Shown here: positions 1 to 8,089 of the stretch, piece by piece
Layout: each line of letters opens with the position of its first letter
Position numbering within the stretch: position 1 is the first letter of the stretch
Notes under the pieces: generated by a model
The model's database searches: none
What the model was told of the DNA's origin: nothing
The model's input: the letters and a program-made list of their open reading frames with translations, nothing else
From: a virus
Taxonomy: Duplodnaviria; Heunggongvirae; Uroviricota; Caudoviricetes
Strand: one strand, 5' to 3'
DNA length: 8,089 bases
IMG/VR virus record: IMGVR_UViG_2558860290_000019
Program-made: the position numbers and the translations under genes

Positions 1-1152
1 TTATTTAAGAGTTCTTCCTATATTTATGCTTTTTTTCTCTATGGTTATATGCATGAGATATGCAAGAGTTGTAACAATAGAGAACGCAGCTATCAATGAT
101 ACTAGATAGCTAAAACCAGATCCAGTTAGGAATCTGATTATGCAATACCCTATCACTGAGTGGAGAGCATAAAAAGAATAACTTATATTTGCAAGAAATG
201 AGAGTGGTCTTACCTCTTTAAAGTAATCATTTAATAACATTGCGATTAAAAATACAATATAACCATAAATATAGTTTACTCCAACCTCAATAAATTGGTT
301 GCTCTGTGGGCCGCATTTCCACGTCATTCCTACAAGGATAGCTGTCATCATTGTTGAAGCTATGAACTCGCCTGTATTAATTCGCTTTTCAAAATAAAAG
401 TTAAGCAGAATACCAAGAGTCATATATGAAATGTACATGAATTCTATCTTTAACGCATCGAAAGAAAAGAATCCCTGCTGACTTGAGCCAAGCCCTAAGT
501 TTGCTGTAAAAAATGTAATGGCGAATACAGATATTGGGATGCATAATAACTTTATTATATTTGCACTTCTTATTGCCCCATATACCAAAAGACAAGTTAT
601 ATAGAATTTTATCTCTATAGATAGGGTCCAGTTTACATAATCAATGCTTCCATAGTTGAATATAGATGCAAGCAATGTAATATTGTATATAAAACGATCC
701 ATTGAGATACTATTTGCAGAACCCCAAAAGATGTTGCTTGCGGTAAATACTGCAAGCATTATAAGAGAACATACTATGTATGTAGGGTATATTCTTATTA
801 TCCTTGCAAATAGGTAACCAAGTGGAGACTTGTTTCTCATTGAATATGTTAAAACAAACCCGCTAATTATGAAGAATATAGATACCCCAAACGGACCATA
901 ATTAAAATATGGTAAAGGAGGAAGTATTGATATGTAATAAGCTGAATTTCCAGTGCTCACGTCAGGAGCGCCGGTCACAGAGCTGATGAATGTAGGATTT
1001 AGTGAGTATATGCCAAGCCAGTGGACTGCAACTACACTCAAAAAAGCTATAGCCCTTAACTGTGAAGCGAAGATGACTCTGCCTTTCTTTTTTGTATCCA
1101 CCACTTCATGGATGGCATTGCTTTGAATGCCATCCTGCGCTTGTTGCGCCAT
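1..1152 (-). CDS. Acyltransferase family 3 (OafA/Oac-like) integral membrane protein; AT-rich cargo gene at the P2 Z/fun-equivalent slot
   Basis: Complete minus-strand ORF (stop TAA at 1..3). Two in-frame ATGs: 1170 has no Shine-Dalgarno, while the ATG at 1152 (Met7) is preceded by AAGAGG (1159..1164) with a 6-nt spacer, so 1152 is preferred (383 aa; 389 aa from 1170). The protein is very hydrophobic with multiple predicted membrane segments and carries Acyl_transf_3-type motifs: LRAIAFLSVVAVH (Arg...His in the first helix), GVSIFFIISGF, ARIIRIYPTY and NWTLSIEIKFY (compare the WSLSVE motif). The gene is far more AT-rich than the tail genes and is divergent from FI. Confidence 0.8.
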   Translation of the reverse strand: MAQQAQDGIQSNAIHEVVDTKKKGRVIFASQLRAIAFLSVVAVHWLGIYSLNPTFISSVTGAPDVSTGNSAYYISILPPLPYFNYGPFGVSIFFIISGFVLTYSMRNKSPLGYLFARIIRIYPTYIVCSLIMLAVFTASNIFWGSANSISMDRFIYNITLLASIFNYGSIDYVNWTLSIEIKFYITCLLVYGAIRSANIIKLLCIPISVFAITFFTANLGLGSSQQGFFSFDALKIEFMYISYMTLGILLNFYFEKRINTGEFIASTMMTAILVGMTWKCGPQSNQFIEVGVNYIYGYIVFLIAMLLNDYFKEVRPLSFLANISYSFYALHSVIGYCIIRFLTGSGFSYLVSLIAAFSIVTTLAYLMHITIEKKSINIGRTLK

Positions 1153-1256
1153 TTCTAACCTCTTTTCCATTTAAAATTTAATCTAAGTAGAGAAAAAACA
1201 AAATGGGATTATTCATCATTGTTGATTAAAGATAAAGAGGGTATGTACAAAACTAA

Positions 1257-1277
1257 CACCCACTGAGTGAGTGGGTG
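1257..1277. repeat. Perfect 8-bp inverted repeat CACCCACT-N5-AGTGGGTG at the AT-rich/GC-rich junction; possible operator or leftward stem-loop
   Basis: Read directly: CACCCACT (1257..1264), GAGTG loop, AGTGGGTG (1270..1277). On the minus strand the stem is followed by TTAGTTTTGT, a weak U-rich tail. Function is not established. Confidence 0.25.
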
Positions 1278-1403
1278 CAGGCCGGGTGGTTGCTGGCTGC
1301 GGGGGAGTCACGTCAACGCGTGGCGCTGATTTTTGATATTGGCCTGTCCACGCTCTATAAAAAATTCCCCTCATCAGTGCCAAAAAATAAATTGTGTCAT
1401 CCC

Positions 1404-1420
1404 TTGTCCAACCGGGACAA
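1404..1420 (+). promoter_or_regulatory. Dyad TTGTCC-N5-GGACAA upstream of FI; candidate activator site of the late promoter (PF-equivalent)
   Basis: Perfect 6-bp inverted repeat centred at about 1412, roughly 72 bp upstream of the FI ATG, with only weak -10-like hexamers downstream (TATCAC 1451..1456), as expected for an activator-dependent promoter. Caveat: the Ogr-family consensus I recall is TGT-N12-ACA, whereas this dyad is TGT-N9-ACA, so the assignment is tentative. Confidence 0.3.
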
Positions 1421-1483
1421 ATAGCCTGACATCGCCGGCACAACTGAAAATATCACTCACCCATTAACCACGGAGTTAAACGG

Positions 1484-2674
1484 ATGAGTGACTATCATCA
1501 CGGCGTGCAGGTGCTGGAGATTAACGACGGCACCCGCGTCATTTCCACCGTATCCACCGCCATTATTGGCATGGTCTGCACGGCCAGCGATGCGGATGCG
1601 GAAACCTTCCCCCTCAATAAACCGGTGCTGATTACCAATGTGCAGAGCGCAATTGCAAAGGCCGGTAAAAAAGGCACGCTGGCGGCGTCGTTGCAGGCCA
1701 TCGCTGACCAGTCAAAACCGGTCACCGTTGTCGTGCGCGTGGAAGACGGAACCGGCGACGACGAAGAAACGAAACTCGCGCAGACCGTTTCCAATATCAT
1801 CGGCACCACTGACGAAAACGGTCAGTACACCGGACTGAAAGCCCTGATGGGCGCTGAGTCGGTTACCGGCGTTAAACCGCGTATTCTCGGCGTACCGGGA
1901 CTGGACACCAAAGAGGTCGCCGTCGCACTGGCATCGGTATGCCAGGAACTGAATGCCTTCGGGTATATCAGCGCATGGGGTTGTAAAACCATTTCCGAGG
2001 TGAAAGCCTACCGCCAGAATTTCAGCCAGCGTGAGCTGATGGTCATCTGGCCGGATTTCCTCGCATGGGATACGGTTACCAGTACCACCGCCACCGCGTA
2101 TGCCACCGCCCGTGCGCTGGGTCTGCGCGCTAAAATCGACCAGGAGCAGGGCTGGCATAAAACGCTGTCCAACGTCGGGGTGAACGGTGTTACCGGCATC
2201 AGTGCATCCGTCTTCTGGGATTTGCAGAAGCCCGGCACTGATGCTGACCTGCTGAACGAGTCAGGCGTCACTACGCTGATTCGCCGCGACGGTTTCCGTT
2301 TCTGGGGTAACCGTACCTGCTCTGATGACCCGCTGTTCCTCTTTGAAAGCTACACACGCACCGCGCAGGTACTGGCCGACACGATGGCTGAGGCGCACAT
2401 GTGGGCTATTGATAAGCCCATCACCGCAACGCTGATTCGCGACATCATTGACGGCATCAATGCCAAATTCCGTGAACTGAAAAACAACGGTTATATCGTG
2501 GATGGCTCATGCTGGTTCAGCGAAGAATCCAACGATGCGGAAACCCTCAAGGCCGGAAAACTGTATATCGACTACGACTATACCCCGGTGCCTCCTCTTG
2601 AAAATCTGACCCTGCGCCAGCGTATTACTTCCAGATACCTGGCAAGTCTGGTCACTTCGGTTAACAGCAATTAA
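1484..2674 (+). CDS. FI: Contractile tail sheath protein (P2 gpFI family)
   Basis: 396-codon ORF with GGAG (1472..1475) 8 nt upstream of the ATG. N-terminus MSDYHHGVQVLEINDGTRVI; length and position as first gene of the FETUD order match P2 gpFI (396 aa as I recall). Immediately followed by the tube gene. Confidence 0.93.
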   Translation: MSDYHHGVQVLEINDGTRVISTVSTAIIGMVCTASDADAETFPLNKPVLITNVQSAIAKAGKKGTLAASLQAIADQSKPVTVVVRVEDGTGDDEETKLAQTVSNIIGTTDENGQYTGLKALMGAESVTGVKPRILGVPGLDTKEVAVALASVCQELNAFGYISAWGCKTISEVKAYRQNFSQRELMVIWPDFLAWDTVTSTTATAYATARALGLRAKIDQEQGWHKTLSNVGVNGVTGISASVFWDLQKPGTDADLLNESGVTTLIRRDGFRFWGNRTCSDDPLFLFESYTRTAQVLADTMAEAHMWAIDKPITATLIRDIIDGINAKFRELKNNGYIVDGSCWFSEESNDAETLKAGKLYIDYDYTPVPPLENLTLRQRITSRYLASLVTSVNSN

Positions 2675-2686
2675 GGAGCCTGACCG

Positions 2687-3205
2687 ATGGCAATGCCGCG
2701 CAAACTCAAGTTAATGAACGTCTTTCTGAACGGCTACAGCTATCAGGGCGTTGCAAAGTCCGTCACGCTGCCAAAACTGACCCGTAAGCTCGAAAACTAT
2801 CGCGGTGCGGGGATGAACGGCAGCGCACCGGTGGACCTCGGCCTTGATGACGATGCGCTGTCAATGGAGTGGTCGCTCGGGGGCTTCCCGGATTCGGTTA
2901 TCTGGGAGCTTTACGCCGCAACCGGTGTGGATGCTGTGCCGATTCGTTTTGCAGGCTCTTACCAGCGTGACGATACCGGCGAAACGGTGGCCGTCGAGGT
3001 GGTCATGCGTGGACGTCAGAAAGAAATCGACACCGGCGAGGGTAAACAGGGAGAAGACACCGAGTCGAAAATCTCCGTGGTCTGCACCTATTTCCGGCTG
3101 ACGATGGACGGTAAGGAGCTGGTCGAAATCGACACCATCAACATGATTGAGAAGGTGAACGGCGTCGACCGGCTGGAGCAACACCGCCGCAATATCGGCC
3201 TGTGA
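2687..3205 (+). CDS. FII: Tail tube protein (P2 gpFII family)
   Basis: 172-codon ORF with GGAG (2675..2678) 8 nt upstream of the ATG. Size and position match P2 gpFII (172 aa as I recall). Confidence 0.93.
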   Translation: MAMPRKLKLMNVFLNGYSYQGVAKSVTLPKLTRKLENYRGAGMNGSAPVDLGLDDDALSMEWSLGGFPDSVIWELYAATGVDAVPIRFAGSYQRDDTGETVAVEVVMRGRQKEIDTGEGKQGEDTESKISVVCTYFRLTMDGKELVEIDTINMIEKVNGVDRLEQHRRNIGL

Positions 3206-3212
3206 TTTTCAT

Positions 3213-3233
3213 CCGGTCAGCCTGGCTGACCGG
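3213..3233 (+). terminator. GC-rich stem-loop (9-bp stem, 3-nt loop) between FII and E with no U-tract; possible partial terminator/attenuator or mRNA 3' stabiliser
   Basis: CCGGTCAGC (3213..3221), CTG, GCTGACCGG (3225..3233), a perfect inverted repeat. It is followed by TTAACCCC, not a canonical U-run. It lies 8 nt after the FII stop and about 29 nt before the E start. Confidence 0.3.
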
Positions 3234-3261
3234 TTAACCCCGATTCATAAGTGAGAAAACC

Positions 3262-3537
3262 ATGAACAAAGAAAATGTGATTACCCTGGACAATCCGGTC
3301 AAACGTGGTGAGCAGGTTATCGAACAGGTCACGCTGATGAAACCCAATGCGGGGACGCTGCGCGGTGTCAGTCTGGCTGCGGTCGCAAACTCCGAAGTCG
3401 ATGCACTGATTAAAGTGCTGCCGCGCATGACGGCACCGATGCTGACCGAGCAGGAAGTCGCCGCGCTGGAACTGCCTGACCTTGTGGCGCTGGCCGGTAA
3501 GGTGGTCGGTTTTTTGTCGCCGAACTCGGTGCAGTGA
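3262..3537 (+). CDS. E: Tail assembly chaperone (P2 gpE family)
   Basis: 91-codon ORF (MNKENVITLDNPVKRGEQVIEQV ... GFLSPNSVQ). Size and position match P2 gpE. A TTTTTTG run lies near its 3' end. Confidence 0.9.
   Translation: MNKENVITLDNPVKRGEQVIEQVTLMKPNAGTLRGVSLAAVANSEVDALIKVLPRMTAPMLTEQEVAALELPDLVALAGKVVGFLSPNSVQ
3510..3516 (+). promoter_or_regulatory. Slippery heptamer T_TTT_TTG in the E frame; candidate programmed frameshift site for E+E'
   Basis: In the E frame the codons are GGT TTT TTG, giving the X_XXY_YYZ pattern. Programmed -1 frameshifting at TTTTTTG to make gpE+E' is the established P2 mechanism. See the findings for the frame anomaly in this sequence. Confidence 0.55.
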
Positions 3538-3691
3538 CGTTTCCAAAAAAATACTCTCGGTCGATGACCTGATGGCGGATGTGGCAGTGGTATTTCACTG
3601 GCCGCCATCAGAACTGTATCCCATGAGCCTGACCGAACTCATCACATGGCGCGAAAAGGCGCTCCGGCGAAGTGGAAACACGAATGAGTAA
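3515..3691 (+). CDS. E': E' reading frame (C-terminal extension of gpE, expressed only as an E+E' frameshift fusion); in this sequence it lies in the +1 phase relative to E
   Basis: Open frame with no convincing own start, overlapping the 3' end of E and ending at TAA 3689..3691, which overlaps the T start. C-terminal part reads LSVDDLMADVAVVFHWPPSELYPMSLTELITWREKALRRSGNTNE. The 5' boundary is nominal, because the true fusion point depends on the shift site. Confidence 0.6.
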   Translation, partial: CRRTRCSDVSKKILSVDDLMADVAVVFHWPPSELYPMSLTELITWREKALRRSGNTNE

Positions 3692-6132
3692 CAATGTAAA
3701 ATTACAGGTATTGCTCAGGGCTGTTGACCAGGCATCCCGCCCGTTTAAATCCATCCGCACAGCGAGTAAGTCGCTGTCGGGGGATATCCGGGAAACACAA
3801 AAATCACTGCGCGAGCTGAACGGTCAGGCATCCCGTATTGAGGGATTTCGCAAGACCAGTGCACAGCTCGCCGTGACTGGTCATGCACTTGAAAAGGCAC
3901 GGCAGGAGGCCGAAGCCCTTGCCACACAGTTTAAAAACACCGAACGTCCGACACGTGCTCAGGCGAAAGTGCTGGAATCCGCAAAGCGTGCGGCGGAGGA
4001 CTTACAGGCGAAATATAACCGCCTGACGGATTCCGTTAAACGCCAGCAGCGGGAACTGGCCGTTGTGGGAATTAATACCCGCAATCTTGCACATGATGAG
4101 CAGGGACTGAAAAACCGTATCAGTGAAACCACCGCACAGCTTAACCGTCAGCGTGACGCGCTGGCGCGTGTCAGTGCGCAACAGGCAAAACTTAACGCAG
4201 TAAAACAGCGTTATCAGGCAGGCAAGGAACTGGCCGGAAATATGGCCTCAGTGGGCGCTGCCGGTGTGGGGATTGCGGCGGCGGGAGCGATGGCCGGAGT
4301 TAAGTTGCTGATGCCCGGTTATGAGTTTGCGCAGAAAAACTCAGAATTGCAGGCCGTGCTCGGAGTGGCAAAAGACTCCGCCGAAATGACCGCACTACGC
4401 AAACAGGCGCGCCAGCTCGGCGACAATACCGCCGCTTCGGCGGATGATGCGGCCGGTGCACAGATAATCATCGCGAAAGCGGGTGGGGATGTTGATGCCA
4501 TTCAGGCGGCAACGCCGGTCACGCTGAATATGGCGCTGGCGAACCGCCGCACGATGGAAGAAAACGCCGCCCTGCTGATGGGGATGAAATCCGCCTTTCA
4601 GCTTTCAAACGATAAGGTCGCTCATATCGGGGATGTTCTCTCCATGACGATGAACAAAACCGCCGCCGATTTTGACGGCATGAGCGATGCGCTGACCTAT
4701 GCCGCACCTGTAGACAAAAAATGCCGGTGTCAGCATTGAAGAAACCGCCGCAATGGTCGGGGCGCTGCATGATGCAAAAATCACAGGCTCAATGGCGGGG
4801 ACGGGAAGCCGTGCCGTGTTAAGCCGCCTGCAGGCACCGACGGGAAAAGCATGGGATGCACTCAAAGAGCTTGGTGTGAAAACCTCAGACAGCAAGGGAA
4901 ACACCCGGCCAATATTTACCATTCTGAAAGAAATGCAGGCCAGTTTTGAGAAAAACCGGCTCGGTACTGCCCAGCAGGCTGAATACATGAAAACTATTTT
5001 CGGGGAGGAGGCCAGCTCAGCCGCCGCCGTGCTGATGACTGCCGCCTCAACCGGAAAGCTGGACAAACTGACCGCTGCGTTTAAAGCCTCAGACGGGAAG
5101 ACTGCCGAGCTGGTAAATATCATGCAGGACAACCTCGGCGGTGACTTTAAGGAGTTTCAGTCCGCTTATGAGGCGGTGGGGACTGACCTGTTTGACCAGC
5201 AGGAAGGCGCACTGCGTAAGCTCACACAGACGGCCACAAAGTATGTGTTAAAACTCGACGGCTGGATACAGAAAAACAAATCACTGGCGTCAACCATTGG
5301 CATCATTGCCGGTGGCGCGCTGGCGCTTATTGGCATCATCGGTGCCATTGGTCTTGTAGCCTGGCCGGTTATCACCGGCATCAATGCCATTATCGCGGCA
5401 GCAGGCGCAATGGGGGCAATCTTCACGACGGTTGGCAGTGCTGTTATGACGGCCATCGGGGCGATTAGCTGGCCGGTTGTGGCTGTGGTGGCCGCCATTG
5501 TCGCCGGGGCGTTGCTTATCCGTAAATACTGGGAGCCTGTCAGCGCATTCTTCGGCGGTGTGGTTGAAGGGCTGAAAGCAGCATTTGCGCCGGTGGGGGA
5601 ACTGTTCACGCCACTTAAGCCGGTGTTTGACTGGCTGGGTGAAAAGTTACAGGCCGCGTGGCAGTGGTTTAAAAACCTGATTGCCCCGGTCAAAGCCACC
5701 CAGGACACCCTGAACCGTTGCCGTGATACTGGCGTCATGTTCGGGCAGGCACTGGCTGACGCGCTGATGCTGCCGCTTAATGCGTTCAACAAACTGCGCA
5801 GCGGAATTGACTGGGTACTGGAAAAACTCGGTGTTATCAACAAAGAGTCAGACACACTTGACCAGACCGCCGCCAGAACTCAAGCCGCCACGAATGGCAG
5901 CGGTGGTTATATTCCGGCGACCAGCTCTTATGCAGGCTATCAGGCTTATCAGCCGGTCACGGCACCGGCTGGCCGCTCTTATGTGGACCAGAGTAAAAAC
6001 GAATATCACATCAGCCTGACCGGTGGTACTGCGCCGGGGACACAGCTTGACCGCCAGTTACAGGATGCGCTCGAAAAATACGAGCGGGATAAACGTGCGC
6101 GCGCCCGTGCCAGCATGATGCATGACGGTTAA
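3684..6132 (+). pseudogene. T: Tail tape measure protein (P2 gpT family), interrupted by a frameshift in an A6 run (4716..4721); possibly a homopolymer sequencing error
   Basis: N-terminal ORF from ATG 3684 (MSNNVKLQVLLRAV; the track's GTG at 3672 is less likely) ends DKKCRCQH with TGA at 4737..4739. The +1 frame is open from 4714 and reads TKNAGVSIEETAAMVGALHDAKITGSMAG through to TAA 6130..6132. Removing one A gives a continuous AAPVDKNAGVSIEE junction and an 815-codon ORF, which matches my recollection of P2 gpT length. The N-terminus is coiled-coil-like (Q/R/A-rich) and the centre has glycine-rich hydrophobic segments (GIIAGGALALIGIIGAIG), both typical of tape measure proteins. Confidence 0.8.
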
Positions 6133-6146
6133 GGAGGTGACGAAAA

Positions 6147-6626
6147 ATGATGCTCGCGTTAGGTATGTTTGTTTTTATGCGCCAGACGCTGCCACACCAG
6201 ACCATGCAGCGTGAATCAGATTATCGCTGGCCGTCAAATTCCCGTATCGGTAAACGGGATGCCTTTCAGTTTCTCGGTGTGGGTGAGGAAAACATCACGC
6301 TTGCCGGTGTGCTTTATCCAGAACTGACCGGCGGCAAGCTGACGATGACCACGCTCAGGCTGATGGCAGAGGAAGGCCGGGCGTGGCCGTTGCTGGATGG
6401 CACCGGCATGATTTACGGCATGTATGTCATCAGCAGGGTGAGTGAAACAGGGAGTATTTTCTTTGCAGACGGCACACCCCGGAAAATTGATTTTACGCTG
6501 TCGCTCACCCGCGTTGATGAATCACTGGCCGCGCTTTATGGCGATATCGGTAAACAGGCGGAATCGCTCATCGGTAAGGCTGGCAGTATGGCGACCAGAT
6601 TCACGGGTATGACGGGGGCGGGATAA
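6147..6626 (+). CDS. U: Tail protein gpU (P2 gpU family)
   Basis: 159-codon ORF with AGGAGG (6132..6137) 9 nt upstream of the ATG. Size and position match P2 gpU. Confidence 0.88.
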   Translation: MMLALGMFVFMRQTLPHQTMQRESDYRWPSNSRIGKRDAFQFLGVGEENITLAGVLYPELTGGKLTMTTLRLMAEEGRAWPLLDGTGMIYGMYVISRVSETGSIFFADGTPRKIDFTLSLTRVDESLAALYGDIGKQAESLIGKAGSMATRFTGMTGAG

Positions 6627-7789
6627 TGCTGGATGCGCTGACATTTGATGCAGGCAGTACACTGACGCCGGATTATATGCTGATGCTCGACAGCAGGGAT
6701 ATTACCGGCAATATCAGCGACCGTCTGATGAGCATGACCCTGACGGATAACCGGGGCTTTGAGGCTGACCAGCTTGATATTGAACTGAATGATGCCGACG
6801 GGCAGGTCGGGCTGCCGGTTCGTGGCGCTGTCCTGACGGTGTATATCGGCTGGAAAGGTTTTGCCCTGGTATGCAAAGGGAAATTTACCGTTGATGAGGT
6901 CGAACACCGGGGCGCGCCGGATGTGGTCACCATCCGCGCCCGGAGTGCAGATTTTCGCGGGACGCTCAATTCCCGCCGTGAAGGCTCCTGGCATGACACC
7001 ACGCTCGGTGCGATTGTTGAGGCGATAGCCTCCCGTAACAGGCTGGAAGCCAGTGTCGCGCCGTCACTGGCAGGAATTAAAATCCCGCACATCGACCAGT
7101 CGCAGGAGTCCGACGCGAAATTCCTGACCCGTCTTGCAGAACGCAACGGCGGTGAGGTGTCGGTAAAAATGGGAAAACTGTTGTTTCTCAAAGCGGGGCA
7201 GGGGGTGACGGCCAGTGGTAAAAAAATCCCGCAGGTCACCATAACCCGCAGCGACGGCGACCGCCATCATTTTGCGATTGCTGACCGTGGAGCCTATACC
7301 GGCGTAACGGCAAAGTGGTTACACACCAAAGACCCGAAGCCGCAAAAGCAGAAGGTAAAACTGAAACGCAAAAAGAAAGAGAAACACCTGCGCGCACTGG
7401 AGCACCCGAAAGCGAAACCGGTCAGGCAGAAGAAAGCGCCTAAAGTACCGGAAGCGCGCGAAGGTGAATACATGGCCGGTGAGGCTGACAACGTTTTTGC
7501 CCTGACCACGGTATATGCCACAAAAGCGCAGGCCATGCGCGCCGCTCAGGCGAAGTGGGATAAACTGCAACGGGGCGTTGCGGAGTTCTCCATCAGCCTG
7601 GCTACCGGTCGGGCAGATATTTACACGGAAACACCGGTCAAAGTGTCTGGCTTTAAGCGCGTCATAGACGAGCAGGACTGGACAATCACTAAGGTGACAC
7701 ACTTTCTGAATAATTCCGGCTTCACGACGTCCTTAGAGCTTGAGGTCAGGCTTTCTGATGTGGAGTACGAAACAGAAGATGATGAGTGA
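6626..7789 (+). CDS. D: Tail protein gpD (P2 late control gene D family, baseplate hub-like)
   Basis: 387-codon ORF whose ATG overlaps the U stop (TAATG, 6624..6628), suggesting translational coupling. Size and position match P2 gpD. Contains a lysine-rich low-complexity segment (7325..7468). Confidence 0.88.
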   Translation: MLDALTFDAGSTLTPDYMLMLDSRDITGNISDRLMSMTLTDNRGFEADQLDIELNDADGQVGLPVRGAVLTVYIGWKGFALVCKGKFTVDEVEHRGAPDVVTIRARSADFRGTLNSRREGSWHDTTLGAIVEAIASRNRLEASVAPSLAGIKIPHIDQSQESDAKFLTRLAERNGGEVSVKMGKLLFLKAGQGVTASGKKIPQVTITRSDGDRHHFAIADRGAYTGVTAKWLHTKDPKPQKQKVKLKRKKKEKHLRALEHPKAKPVRQKKAPKVPEAREGEYMAGEADNVFALTTVYATKAQAMRAAQAKWDKLQRGVAEFSISLATGRADIYTETPVKVSGFKRVIDEQDWTITKVTHFLNNSGFTTSLELEVRLSDVEYETEDDE

Positions 7790-7807
7790 TGTTTTTATTT
7801 TATCTGT

Positions 7808-7836
7808 TTGTTTTATAAGGATAAATTAACTAAAAT
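7808..7836 (+). promoter_or_regulatory. Candidate sigma70 promoter for ogr: -35 TTGTTT (7808..7813), 17-nt spacer, -10 TAAAAT (7831..7836)
   Basis: Hexamers and spacing read directly from the AT-rich D-ogr intergenic region. The predicted start site at about 7843 would give a roughly 28-nt leader containing AAGAGG (7857..7862). Confidence 0.35.
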
Positions 7837-7870
7837 GGCACCATCAACAAAACCGGAAGAGGTGCTCGCG

Positions 7871-8089
7871 ATGTTTCATTGTCCTTTATGCCAGCATGCC
7901 GCACATGCGCGTACAAGTCGCTATATCACTGACACGACAAAAGAGCGTTATCACCAGTGCCAGAACGTGAATTGCAGCGCCACGTTCATCACTTATGAGT
8001 CGGTACAGCGATACATCGTGAAGCCGGGAGAAGTCCACGCCGTAAGACCGCACCCGTTGCCGTCAGGGCAGCAAATTATGTGGATGTAA
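7871..8089 (+). CDS. ogr: Ogr, zinc-finger transcriptional activator of late genes (Ogr/Delta family)
   Basis: 72-codon ORF MFHCPLCQHAAHARTSRYITDTTKERYHQCQNVNCSATF..., with the Cys-x2-Cys ... Cys-x4-Cys zinc-binding pattern. AAGAGG lies 8 nt upstream of ATG 7871. The track's longer ORF from TTG 7808 is rejected because it lacks an RBS and would run through the promoter-like region. The stop TAA is at 8087..8089, the window edge. Confidence 0.9.
   Translation: MFHCPLCQHAAHARTSRYITDTTKERYHQCQNVNCSATFITYESVQRYIVKPGEVHAVRPHPLPSGQQIMWM

Follow-up and report, generated by a model that had tools for sequence, protein, structure and literature searches.

An unfused family-3 acyltransferase gene in the Z/fun slot of P2-like Escherichia coli prophages, with a cassette structure pointing to a tailspike siphovirus

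A strongly AT-rich gene stands at the edge of the conserved tail operon of a P2-like prophage and reads away from it, which raises the questions of what it encodes, where it came from and what it might do for the lysogen. The stretch of DNA concerned, hereafter the window, covers 8,089 nucleotides (nt) of a tailed-phage record in IMG/VR (IMGVR_UViG_2558860290_000019), and the gene encodes a membrane acyltransferase of family 3 (AT3). The enzyme class is nearly certain, namely an AT3-only (unfused) membrane acyltransferase whose catalytic signature is intact; for the locus as a whole we favour, with moderate confidence, a stand-alone AT3 enzyme that arrived in a cassette from a tailspike phage and would acylate a surface polysaccharide of the lysogen. 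Phage-borne AT3 O-acetylases and the hotspot in which this gene lies, the Z/fun slot, are already well established, and current concepts are unchanged; what is added is a well-resolved cassette with a tailspike remnant and a displaced invertase, together with a hypothesis involving O-antigen serogroup O99. The invertase remnant, the structure of the cassette and its tailspike-phage origin all go beyond an earlier note on this DNA.

The window starts at the stop codon of the acyltransferase gene, and the tail-fibre side was established from full-length copies of the locus. Among 5426 complete E. coli genomes the gene is found in two, those of strains DLI.5a (locus L001) and AST46 (L002), both 99.7% identical to the window over the first 1500 nt. 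In these genomes, and in drafts encoding an identical 389-amino-acid open reading frame (ORF), the order is baseplate genes, tail fibre gene H, a gene for a 137-amino-acid tail-fibre-assembly-like protein, the AT3 gene, a pseudogene, FI, FII, E/E', T, U, D and ogr, with the AT3 gene convergent to the assembly-like gene (full loci L001, L002 and L185). In P2, fun(Z) lies between the tail-fibre assembly gene G and FI and is likewise leftward; the full loci and the P2 map agree with the earlier placement of the gene in the P2 Z/fun slot, between the tail-fibre side and FI and divergent from the latter. The view of this slot as a hotspot for accessory and anti-phage genes also finds support, as the G-FI interval has been described both as a second locus of P2-like phages that is enriched in defence systems (Vassallo et al. 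2022, PMC9519451) and as a hotspot of mixed purpose, where tail fibres are swapped and DNA invertases are frequent (bioRxiv 10.1101/2024.10.15.618418). A literature search turned up no paper that mentions an AT3 gene at this position.

The earlier note had left a choice between a Z/fun homologue and a different cargo gene, of which the second stands and the first does not. P2 Fun(Z) (NP_046777), known for the exclusion of phage T5, is a protein of 528 amino acids with a GEKGTGKT stretch and no Pfam domain, and BLASTP of the acyltransferase against it gave a best E of 0.35 over 10 residues, i.e. no similarity. With neither sequence nor domain similarity between the two proteins, homology was rejected. 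Position, leftward orientation, AT-richness and variable-cargo status are all shared with the P2 locus, but the cargo, a predicted ten-helix membrane enzyme, is a different gene in the same slot.

Every criterion that can be computed places the protein in the AT3 family and in its unfused subclass. Pfam profile PF01757 (Acyl_transf_3) matches it with E=5.5e-23 and 82 bits against a cut-off of 31, residues 38-373 corresponding to profile positions 7-324 of 326, and the Pfam scan revealed no second domain and hence no C-terminal SGNH/GDSL domain. Its PHROGs match is phrog_3333, 'O-acetyltransferase' (E=2.4e-38). NCBIfam returned no match and PADLOC-DB 2.0 no family at E<=0.1, and the protein therefore has no curated name and belongs to no catalogued defence family. 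In the numbering of the 383-residue form it carries R33-X10-H44, FFIISG at 93-98 and an RxxR motif, R117-I-I-R120; R33, H44, F93, F94, S97, G98, R117, R120, W175, L177 and E180 are invariant in an alignment of 29 relatives reaching down to 27% identity. R-X10-H, FFxISG and RxxR are the motifs of characterised AT3 acetyltransferases, including Salmonella OafA and OafB of the same family, and the arginine and histidine are essential in OafA and Oac (PMC7448272). The hallmarks and the missing SGNH domain that had been read from the translation are confirmed by profile search and alignment. The proposed alignment with Oac of Shigella phage Sf6 succeeded in part: in hhalign (93.8% probability, 152 columns) R-X10-H, FFxISG, RxxR and WTLxxE fall into register, but the relationship is only one of family.

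An AlphaFold2 model built from the alignment (mean predicted local distance difference test score, pLDDT, 89; predicted template modelling score, pTM, 0.87) contains ten long helices, in line with the expected multi-pass topology. Helix 10 comprises residues 349-381 of 383 and the protein stops two residues later, with no 11th helix, whereas the O-antigen acetyltransferases OafA and OafB have an 11th helix followed by a periplasmic SGNH domain for final transfer. The model gives the protein the ten-helix integral membrane fold related to HGSNAT and GWT1, the latter presumably a member of the TmAT superfamily. The TmAT fold unites HGSNAT with AT3 proteins (PMC12423673). Searches of the PDB by Foldseek and by sequence gave no match for the acyltransferase. 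We know of no solved AT3 structure.

The history of the gene can be read from the island in which it lies. Over 1428 bp, L002 11841-13267 shows 87.5% identity to an unrelated Logan contig (L004, positions 65-1492), and both ends of the match are the ends of the AT-rich island. On the left, the fibre-tip and assembly module ceases to match other prophages at L002 11841; from there the first 124 bp of the island in the P2-like prophage are the last 41 codons of a tailspike gene, which ends in VILTGWVSSNDTVSFRMQNGTGSPMTLPTGKISAVILKYS before its stop codon, compared with ...SSITLPAGNISAVISRYS and stop in L004. A perfect 14-bp hairpin (ATTATATGGTGGCG-CA-CGCCACCATATAAT) lies between the tailspike stop and the acyltransferase stop, and in L004 its pairing is preserved although bases have changed in both arms. 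Tailspike remnant and hairpin together occupy L002 11841-11994, 6 to 160 nt left of window position 1.

L004 has its 90%-identical AT3 gene in convergent orientation to a tailspike gene that is intact (627 amino acids), ahead of which are genes for a tape measure, three minor tail proteins and a large tail protein. The contig is collinear with the temperate siphovirus Erwinia phage vB_EhrS_59 (Feofaniavirus; hereafter Erwinia phage 59), which matches it in its tape measure, minor tail proteins, tail protein, tailspike and convergent AT3 O-acetyltransferase, followed by an integrase; the window, by contrast, has the cassette in the tail region of a P2-like phage. The phage type of L004 was deduced from PHROGs and tblastn, megablast of its phage backbone against 50,697 phage records giving no match. 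In tblastn of the acyltransferase against the same records (E<=1e-3) only Erwinia phage 59 and a Halomonas phage were recovered, neither match being functionally characterised as far as we know. The cassette is accordingly a unit of about 1.43 kb, in which a tailspike 3' end is followed by a bidirectional terminator, the AT3 gene and a 5' region of about 107 nt, and the direction of transfer was from a tailspike phage to a P2-like phage. No flanking direct repeats, insertion sequence elements or transposition signatures were found around it.

At the right-hand junction (Table 1) the composition of the DNA changes sharply, from 35.2% GC at 1-1170 and 24.7% at 1171-1259 to 51% at 1260-1483 and 55.4% at 1484-8089, so that the abrupt change noticed earlier around 1200-1260 can be set at 1260, the exact point where DNA homology to other P2-like phages restarts. 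Window positions 1260-1500 are 94-97% identical to the invertase 3' end and FI promoter region of phage pro483, and match about 1640 E. coli records in which they are annotated as the end of a recombinase or DNA invertase gene and the start of the sheath gene. The slot of pro483 contains an invertible segment of alternative fibre and assembly genes and an invertase gene of 594 nt. The window instead has the AT3 cassette in place of the alternative fibre and assembly genes, and an invertase remnant (Pfam PF02796 HTH_7, E=2.8e-8) without about the first 430 nt of the pro483 reference, classed in RefSeq as a pseudogene missing its N-terminus. Since pro483 homology begins at 1260 and takes in the invertase 3' end, the ancestor was a pro483-type phage, from which the incoming DNA removed the alternative fibre genes together with those 430 or so nt. 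The FI late promoter (pF) appears to have been left intact by the insertion; homology to P2 starts at 1408, and the pF coordinates were mapped from annotated P2 features. A hairpin with a 9-bp stem and a T-rich stretch (GCACCCACTCACTCAGTGGGTGT TAGTTTTGTA) spans the junction between cassette and invertase on the minus strand (1256-1278), directly upstream of the acyltransferase 5' region; a scan flagged it as terminator-like, and it may insulate against antisense read-through or be fortuitous. An Rfam scan of the window gave no match.

Table 1. Features at the acyltransferase end of the window, with the basis for each.
Feature	Position	Strand	Basis or remark
AT3-only acyltransferase gene	1..1152	-	383 codons plus stop at 1-3
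AT-rich 5' region of cassette	1153..1259	-	presumed site of the gene's own promoter
Shine-Dalgarno element AAGAGG	1159..1164	-	6 nt before the ATG at 1152
Right-hand cassette junction	1260..1267		P2-like homology restarts at 1260, siphovirus-cassette homology stops at 1267 (blastn against pro483 and L004; megablast against E. coli genomes and phages)
3' remnant of Hin/Gin-type DNA invertase gene	1266..1424	+	last 52 codons, HTH_7
Dyad TTGTCC-N5-GGACAA	1404..1420		region corresponding to the P2 pF activator-binding site; putative function, by position
Tail sheath gene FI	1484..2674	+	first gene of the conserved tail operon bounding the slot (ORF list, annotations of identical loci, P2 map)

The complete ORF extends over 1..1170 on the minus strand (389 codons, stop at 1-3), and the real start is probably the second in-frame ATG, at 1152-1150. 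The upstream ATG (1170-1168), which would give 389 amino acids, has no Shine-Dalgarno-like element before it. The RefSeq protein WP_023565399.1 begins at the second ATG (383 amino acids), and in the L004 copy GTG replaces the upstream ATG while GAGGGG stands at the Shine-Dalgarno position. The gene was taken as 1..1152 on account of the spacing of the ribosome-binding site, the RefSeq start and the failure of the first ATG to be kept in L004; the earlier remark that the gene has its own ribosome-binding site agrees with the AAGAGG of Table 1. Further upstream, a block of 62 nt (1193-1254) is 94% identical between the window and the siphovirus copy in L004, above the level of synonymous sites. 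By eye, this 5' region offers weak promoter candidates only (TTTATC-17-AATAAT), which we do not claim as a promoter, and zero GATC sites, hence no sign of the Dam/OxyR phase-variation signature seen in gtr and oafB.

What the enzyme acts on is suggested first by the company that its relatives keep. These occur in two settings, as prophage morons of Enterobacterales beside receptor-binding genes and within rml clusters of Pseudomonas. In the first setting, the L004 relative adjoins a tailspike, Pantoea relatives are near gtrA/gtrB, a beta-helix fibre and a tail-fibre-assembly gene, Kluyvera relatives come immediately after the fibre genes in prophages of myovirus type (one of which its baseplate genes mark as Mu-like), and a Salmonella relative is in a podovirus-like prophage; in the second, Pseudomonas relatives (about 40% identity) are in rmlBDAC/glycosyltransferase clusters of the rhamnose O-antigen type. 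IMG/VR holds 187 relatives, and within a few kb of the best 79 of these 187 loci there are a fibre-assembly homologue in at least 23, Mu-type baseplate genes in at least 12 and a tailspike in at least nine, counts that are lower bounds from few markers. That relatives adjoin tailspike or tail-fibre genes or lie in rml clusters strengthens a surface-polysaccharide function. A second, divergent AT3 gene was also seen a few kb from the relative in Pantoea (L005 14899-16029, L009 4740-5528) and in Pseudomonas putida (L100 9324-10430); the Pantoea pair lies in a prophage remnant between the flagellar genes fliT and fliE, with gtrAB in the related locus L008.

Two known systems give this context its meaning. 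Sf6 Oac, which converts serotype by O-acetylating the O-antigen, is likewise an AT3-only PF01757 membrane protein with the shared motifs, encoded by a low-GC phage moron, and the Sf6 order of tailspike, terminator, oac, promoter and int is the same arrangement as in the donor-phage cassette. Like oac, the window gene is a moron on a temperate phage beside a receptor-binding gene, here a tail-fibre assembly gene in a P2-like prophage. The two differ in that Oac has 333 amino acids against 383, the window protein having an N-terminal extension modelled with low confidence (residues 1-25) and a longer loop joining helix 1 to helix 2, and in that Sf6 is a P22-like podovirus whereas the carrier here is a P2-like myovirus. 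The second system is OafB, encoded on prophage BTP1, which protects against the BTP1 tailspike phage (PMC9558356). Because of the context of the relatives and the biology of Oac and OafB, O-acylation of the lysogen's O-antigen is the best supported function; we consider the O-antigen the probable target, and put exclusion of other phages as the selected benefit at about even.

By analogy with other AT3 proteins, a mechanism along the following lines can be proposed. At the cytoplasmic face the inner-membrane enzyme would accept an acyl group, in all likelihood the acetyl of acetyl-CoA, with the participation of the conserved residues Arg33 and His44 in helix 1 and of the RxxR motif; the group would then cross the membrane and, on the periplasmic side, be attached to a hydroxyl of a surface-polysaccharide sugar. 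The O-antigen of the lysogen would be the likeliest acceptor, and the consequences would be lysogenic (serotype) conversion and masking of the polysaccharide from phages that bind via tailspikes or fibres. The cassette arose in a temperate tailspike siphovirus, with the AT3 gene convergent to the tailspike as oac is in Sf6, and was captured into the Z/fun slot of a pro483-type P2-like phage with deletion of most of the tail-fibre DNA invertase gene.

The two complete genomes suggest a more specific acceptor. In both DLI.5a and AST46 the O-antigen cluster is that of O99, comprising wzm/wzt, gmd and an epimerase/dehydratase gene, and O99 wzt is present in only 14 of the 5426 complete genomes. 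The O99 O-antigen belongs to the ABC-transporter type, and its homopolysaccharide backbone bears two side branches in each unit (PMC7685785). One possibility, which we advance only tentatively, is that the cassette masks the receptor by acetylating this O-antigen (rhamnose backbone) and was captured from an O-antigen-specific tailspike siphovirus with loss of the invertase.

Two further features of the O99 hosts were observed. In the O-antigen region of AST46 (L183 39574-40847 and 42650-44710), gtrA and a GT2 gene (gtrB-like) lie between gnd and ugd, and a gene for a DUF6311 membrane protein adjoins gnd; given these chromosomal gtr-type genes in an O99 host, periplasmic O-antigen modification seems built into the serogroup, and the prophage acyltransferase would be a further layer on it. 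The fibre-tip module beside the cassette (L002 10800-11841; the tail-fibre C-terminus and the 137-amino-acid assembly-like gene) is itself found in 14 of the 5426 complete genomes, half of them (7 of 14) O99. It also occurs in a prophage of other strains with Mu-type baseplate genes and stfP/ymfQ homologues, and in BE311 it is followed by a different convergent cargo gene, for a LEM-3-like GIY-YIG protein. The overlap between fibre tip and O99 could reflect receptor specificity or shared strain ancestry.

Several observations weigh against acylation of the O-antigen by a working enzyme. The distance to characterised enzymes is large: pairwise BLAST aligned the protein with Sf6 Oac at 34% identity over 58 amino acids only, no close relation to Sf6 Oac, OacB, OacC, OacD or PhiV10 Oac emerged from the 50,697 phage records, and the best match there, gp22 of Erwinia phage 59, is only 26% identical, its O-acetyltransferase function being likewise predicted. 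A consensus scan found no sigma-70-like promoter on the acyltransferase strand upstream of the start, and expression in the lysogen is presumed. Both complete-genome prophages with the gene have decayed, each in its own way. The association with O99 may go back to a single event, as DLI.5a and AST46 share an insertion site and are perhaps one lineage. Finally, P2-type phages are generally held to use the lipopolysaccharide (LPS) core and not the O-antigen as receptor, so that exclusion of the carrier phage by its own lysogen is not implied.

The receptor of P2 also lends itself to the most serious rival, in which a working AT3 acyltransferase modifies some other envelope glycan, be it the LPS core, enterobacterial common antigen, capsule or colanic acid, osmoregulated periplasmic glucans or peptidoglycan, since modification of the core would suit a P2-like carrier. 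The acceptor is moreover not predictable from sequence alone, the protein is distant from characterised enzymes, and AT3 proteins act on all of these glycan classes (PMC9558356). Yet the cassette keeps a tailspike end and its closest relative is convergent with an intact tailspike, a position that is the classic site of O-antigen and capsule converting genes (Sf6, Erwinia phage 59), and the relatives at about 40% identity lie in rml/glycosyltransferase clusters. Peptidoglycan, in particular, is O-acetylated in this family by AT3-SGNH fusions (PMC9558356), whereas the window protein is unfused. We regard a target other than the O-antigen as unlikely, at roughly one-third the weight given to the O-antigen itself.

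Less likely still is an inert passenger, i.e. a cassette brought in by illegitimate recombination, silent or without an acceptor, and kept only by slow prophage decay. The degraded complete-genome prophages, frameshifts in E' and T of the window, the lack of a consensus promoter and the presence of the gene in only 2 of the 5426 complete genomes would all fit this reading, but the pattern of constraint and spread does not. Between the window and L004 copies of the gene dS (synonymous divergence) is 0.50, dN (non-synonymous divergence) 0.054 and dN/dS 0.108; the gene is under purifying selection, all its catalytic motifs are intact and the 5' block is conserved. The cluster of sequences at >=90% identity holds 43 distinct ones with an intact ORF, which come from E. 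coli and one Shigella boydii and are spread over more than 250 contigs, and a sister cluster (90%-identical) comes from E. coli and Citrobacter. The identical cassette is moreover found in two P2-like backgrounds, between which there are four mismatches up to position 1500 and 166 over the other ~6.6 kb (170 altogether, 97.8% identity over the shared 8.1 kb, the difference of about 2.2% lying nearly all in tail genes), and at two integration sites, beside pflB and beside a Peptidase_U32 gene; the same cassette in two backgrounds at two sites has therefore spread on a mobile phage. A Fun(Z) analogue or homologue, or another intracellular (abortive-type) defence gene, as slot and orientation shared with fun(Z) and the richness of the slot in defence systems (PMC9519451) might suggest, is very improbable for a predicted ten-helix membrane enzyme with a complete AT3 catalytic signature, no similarity to Fun(Z) and no PADLOC family match.

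The condition of the prophages themselves can be described more closely. In DLI.5a (L001 8673-11383) a deletion of the entire head, lysis and baseplate region has joined the replication endonuclease gene to that of the tail fibre, while AST46 (L002 7116-8074) has a truncated terminase and lacks the head and lysis genes; both retain the cargo slot and the tail operon. Compared with an otherwise 99.95%-identical assembly (L186), the window shows one mismatch and three single-base insertions, two of them 2 nt apart. These two, the inserted bases 3551 and 3553 (3545-3555; a 2-nt net gain, by an A-run), truncate the E+E' product, which after the -1 slip ends in ...FPKKYSRSMT and a stop codon, and the 1-nt insertion at 4714 breaks the tape-measure gene T into two ORFs, 3672..4739 and 4753..6132. 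In all six other copies examined, T is unbroken (815 amino acids). The frameshifts in E' and T are due either to errors in sequencing or to prophage decay that is very recent.

For the family of P2-like phages, the locus records a clean, datable move of a moron, a 1.43-kb unit that carries 41 codons of its former tailspike neighbour and now resides in a different phage family, and it suggests that part of the 'unknown' cargo of the P2 hotspot may be receptor-modifying enzymes that defence-system catalogues leave unscored. If the tentative O99 reading is true, the Z/fun 'defence hotspot' would also trade surface-modification genes that act as anti-phage defences, and such genes would travel between unrelated phage types as small self-contained units with their own terminator and 5' region. 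For the host, an acetylated O-antigen would mean an unrecognised O99 subtype, with possible effects on serotyping, on antibody recognition and on sensitivity to O-antigen-dependent phages, therapeutic phages included.

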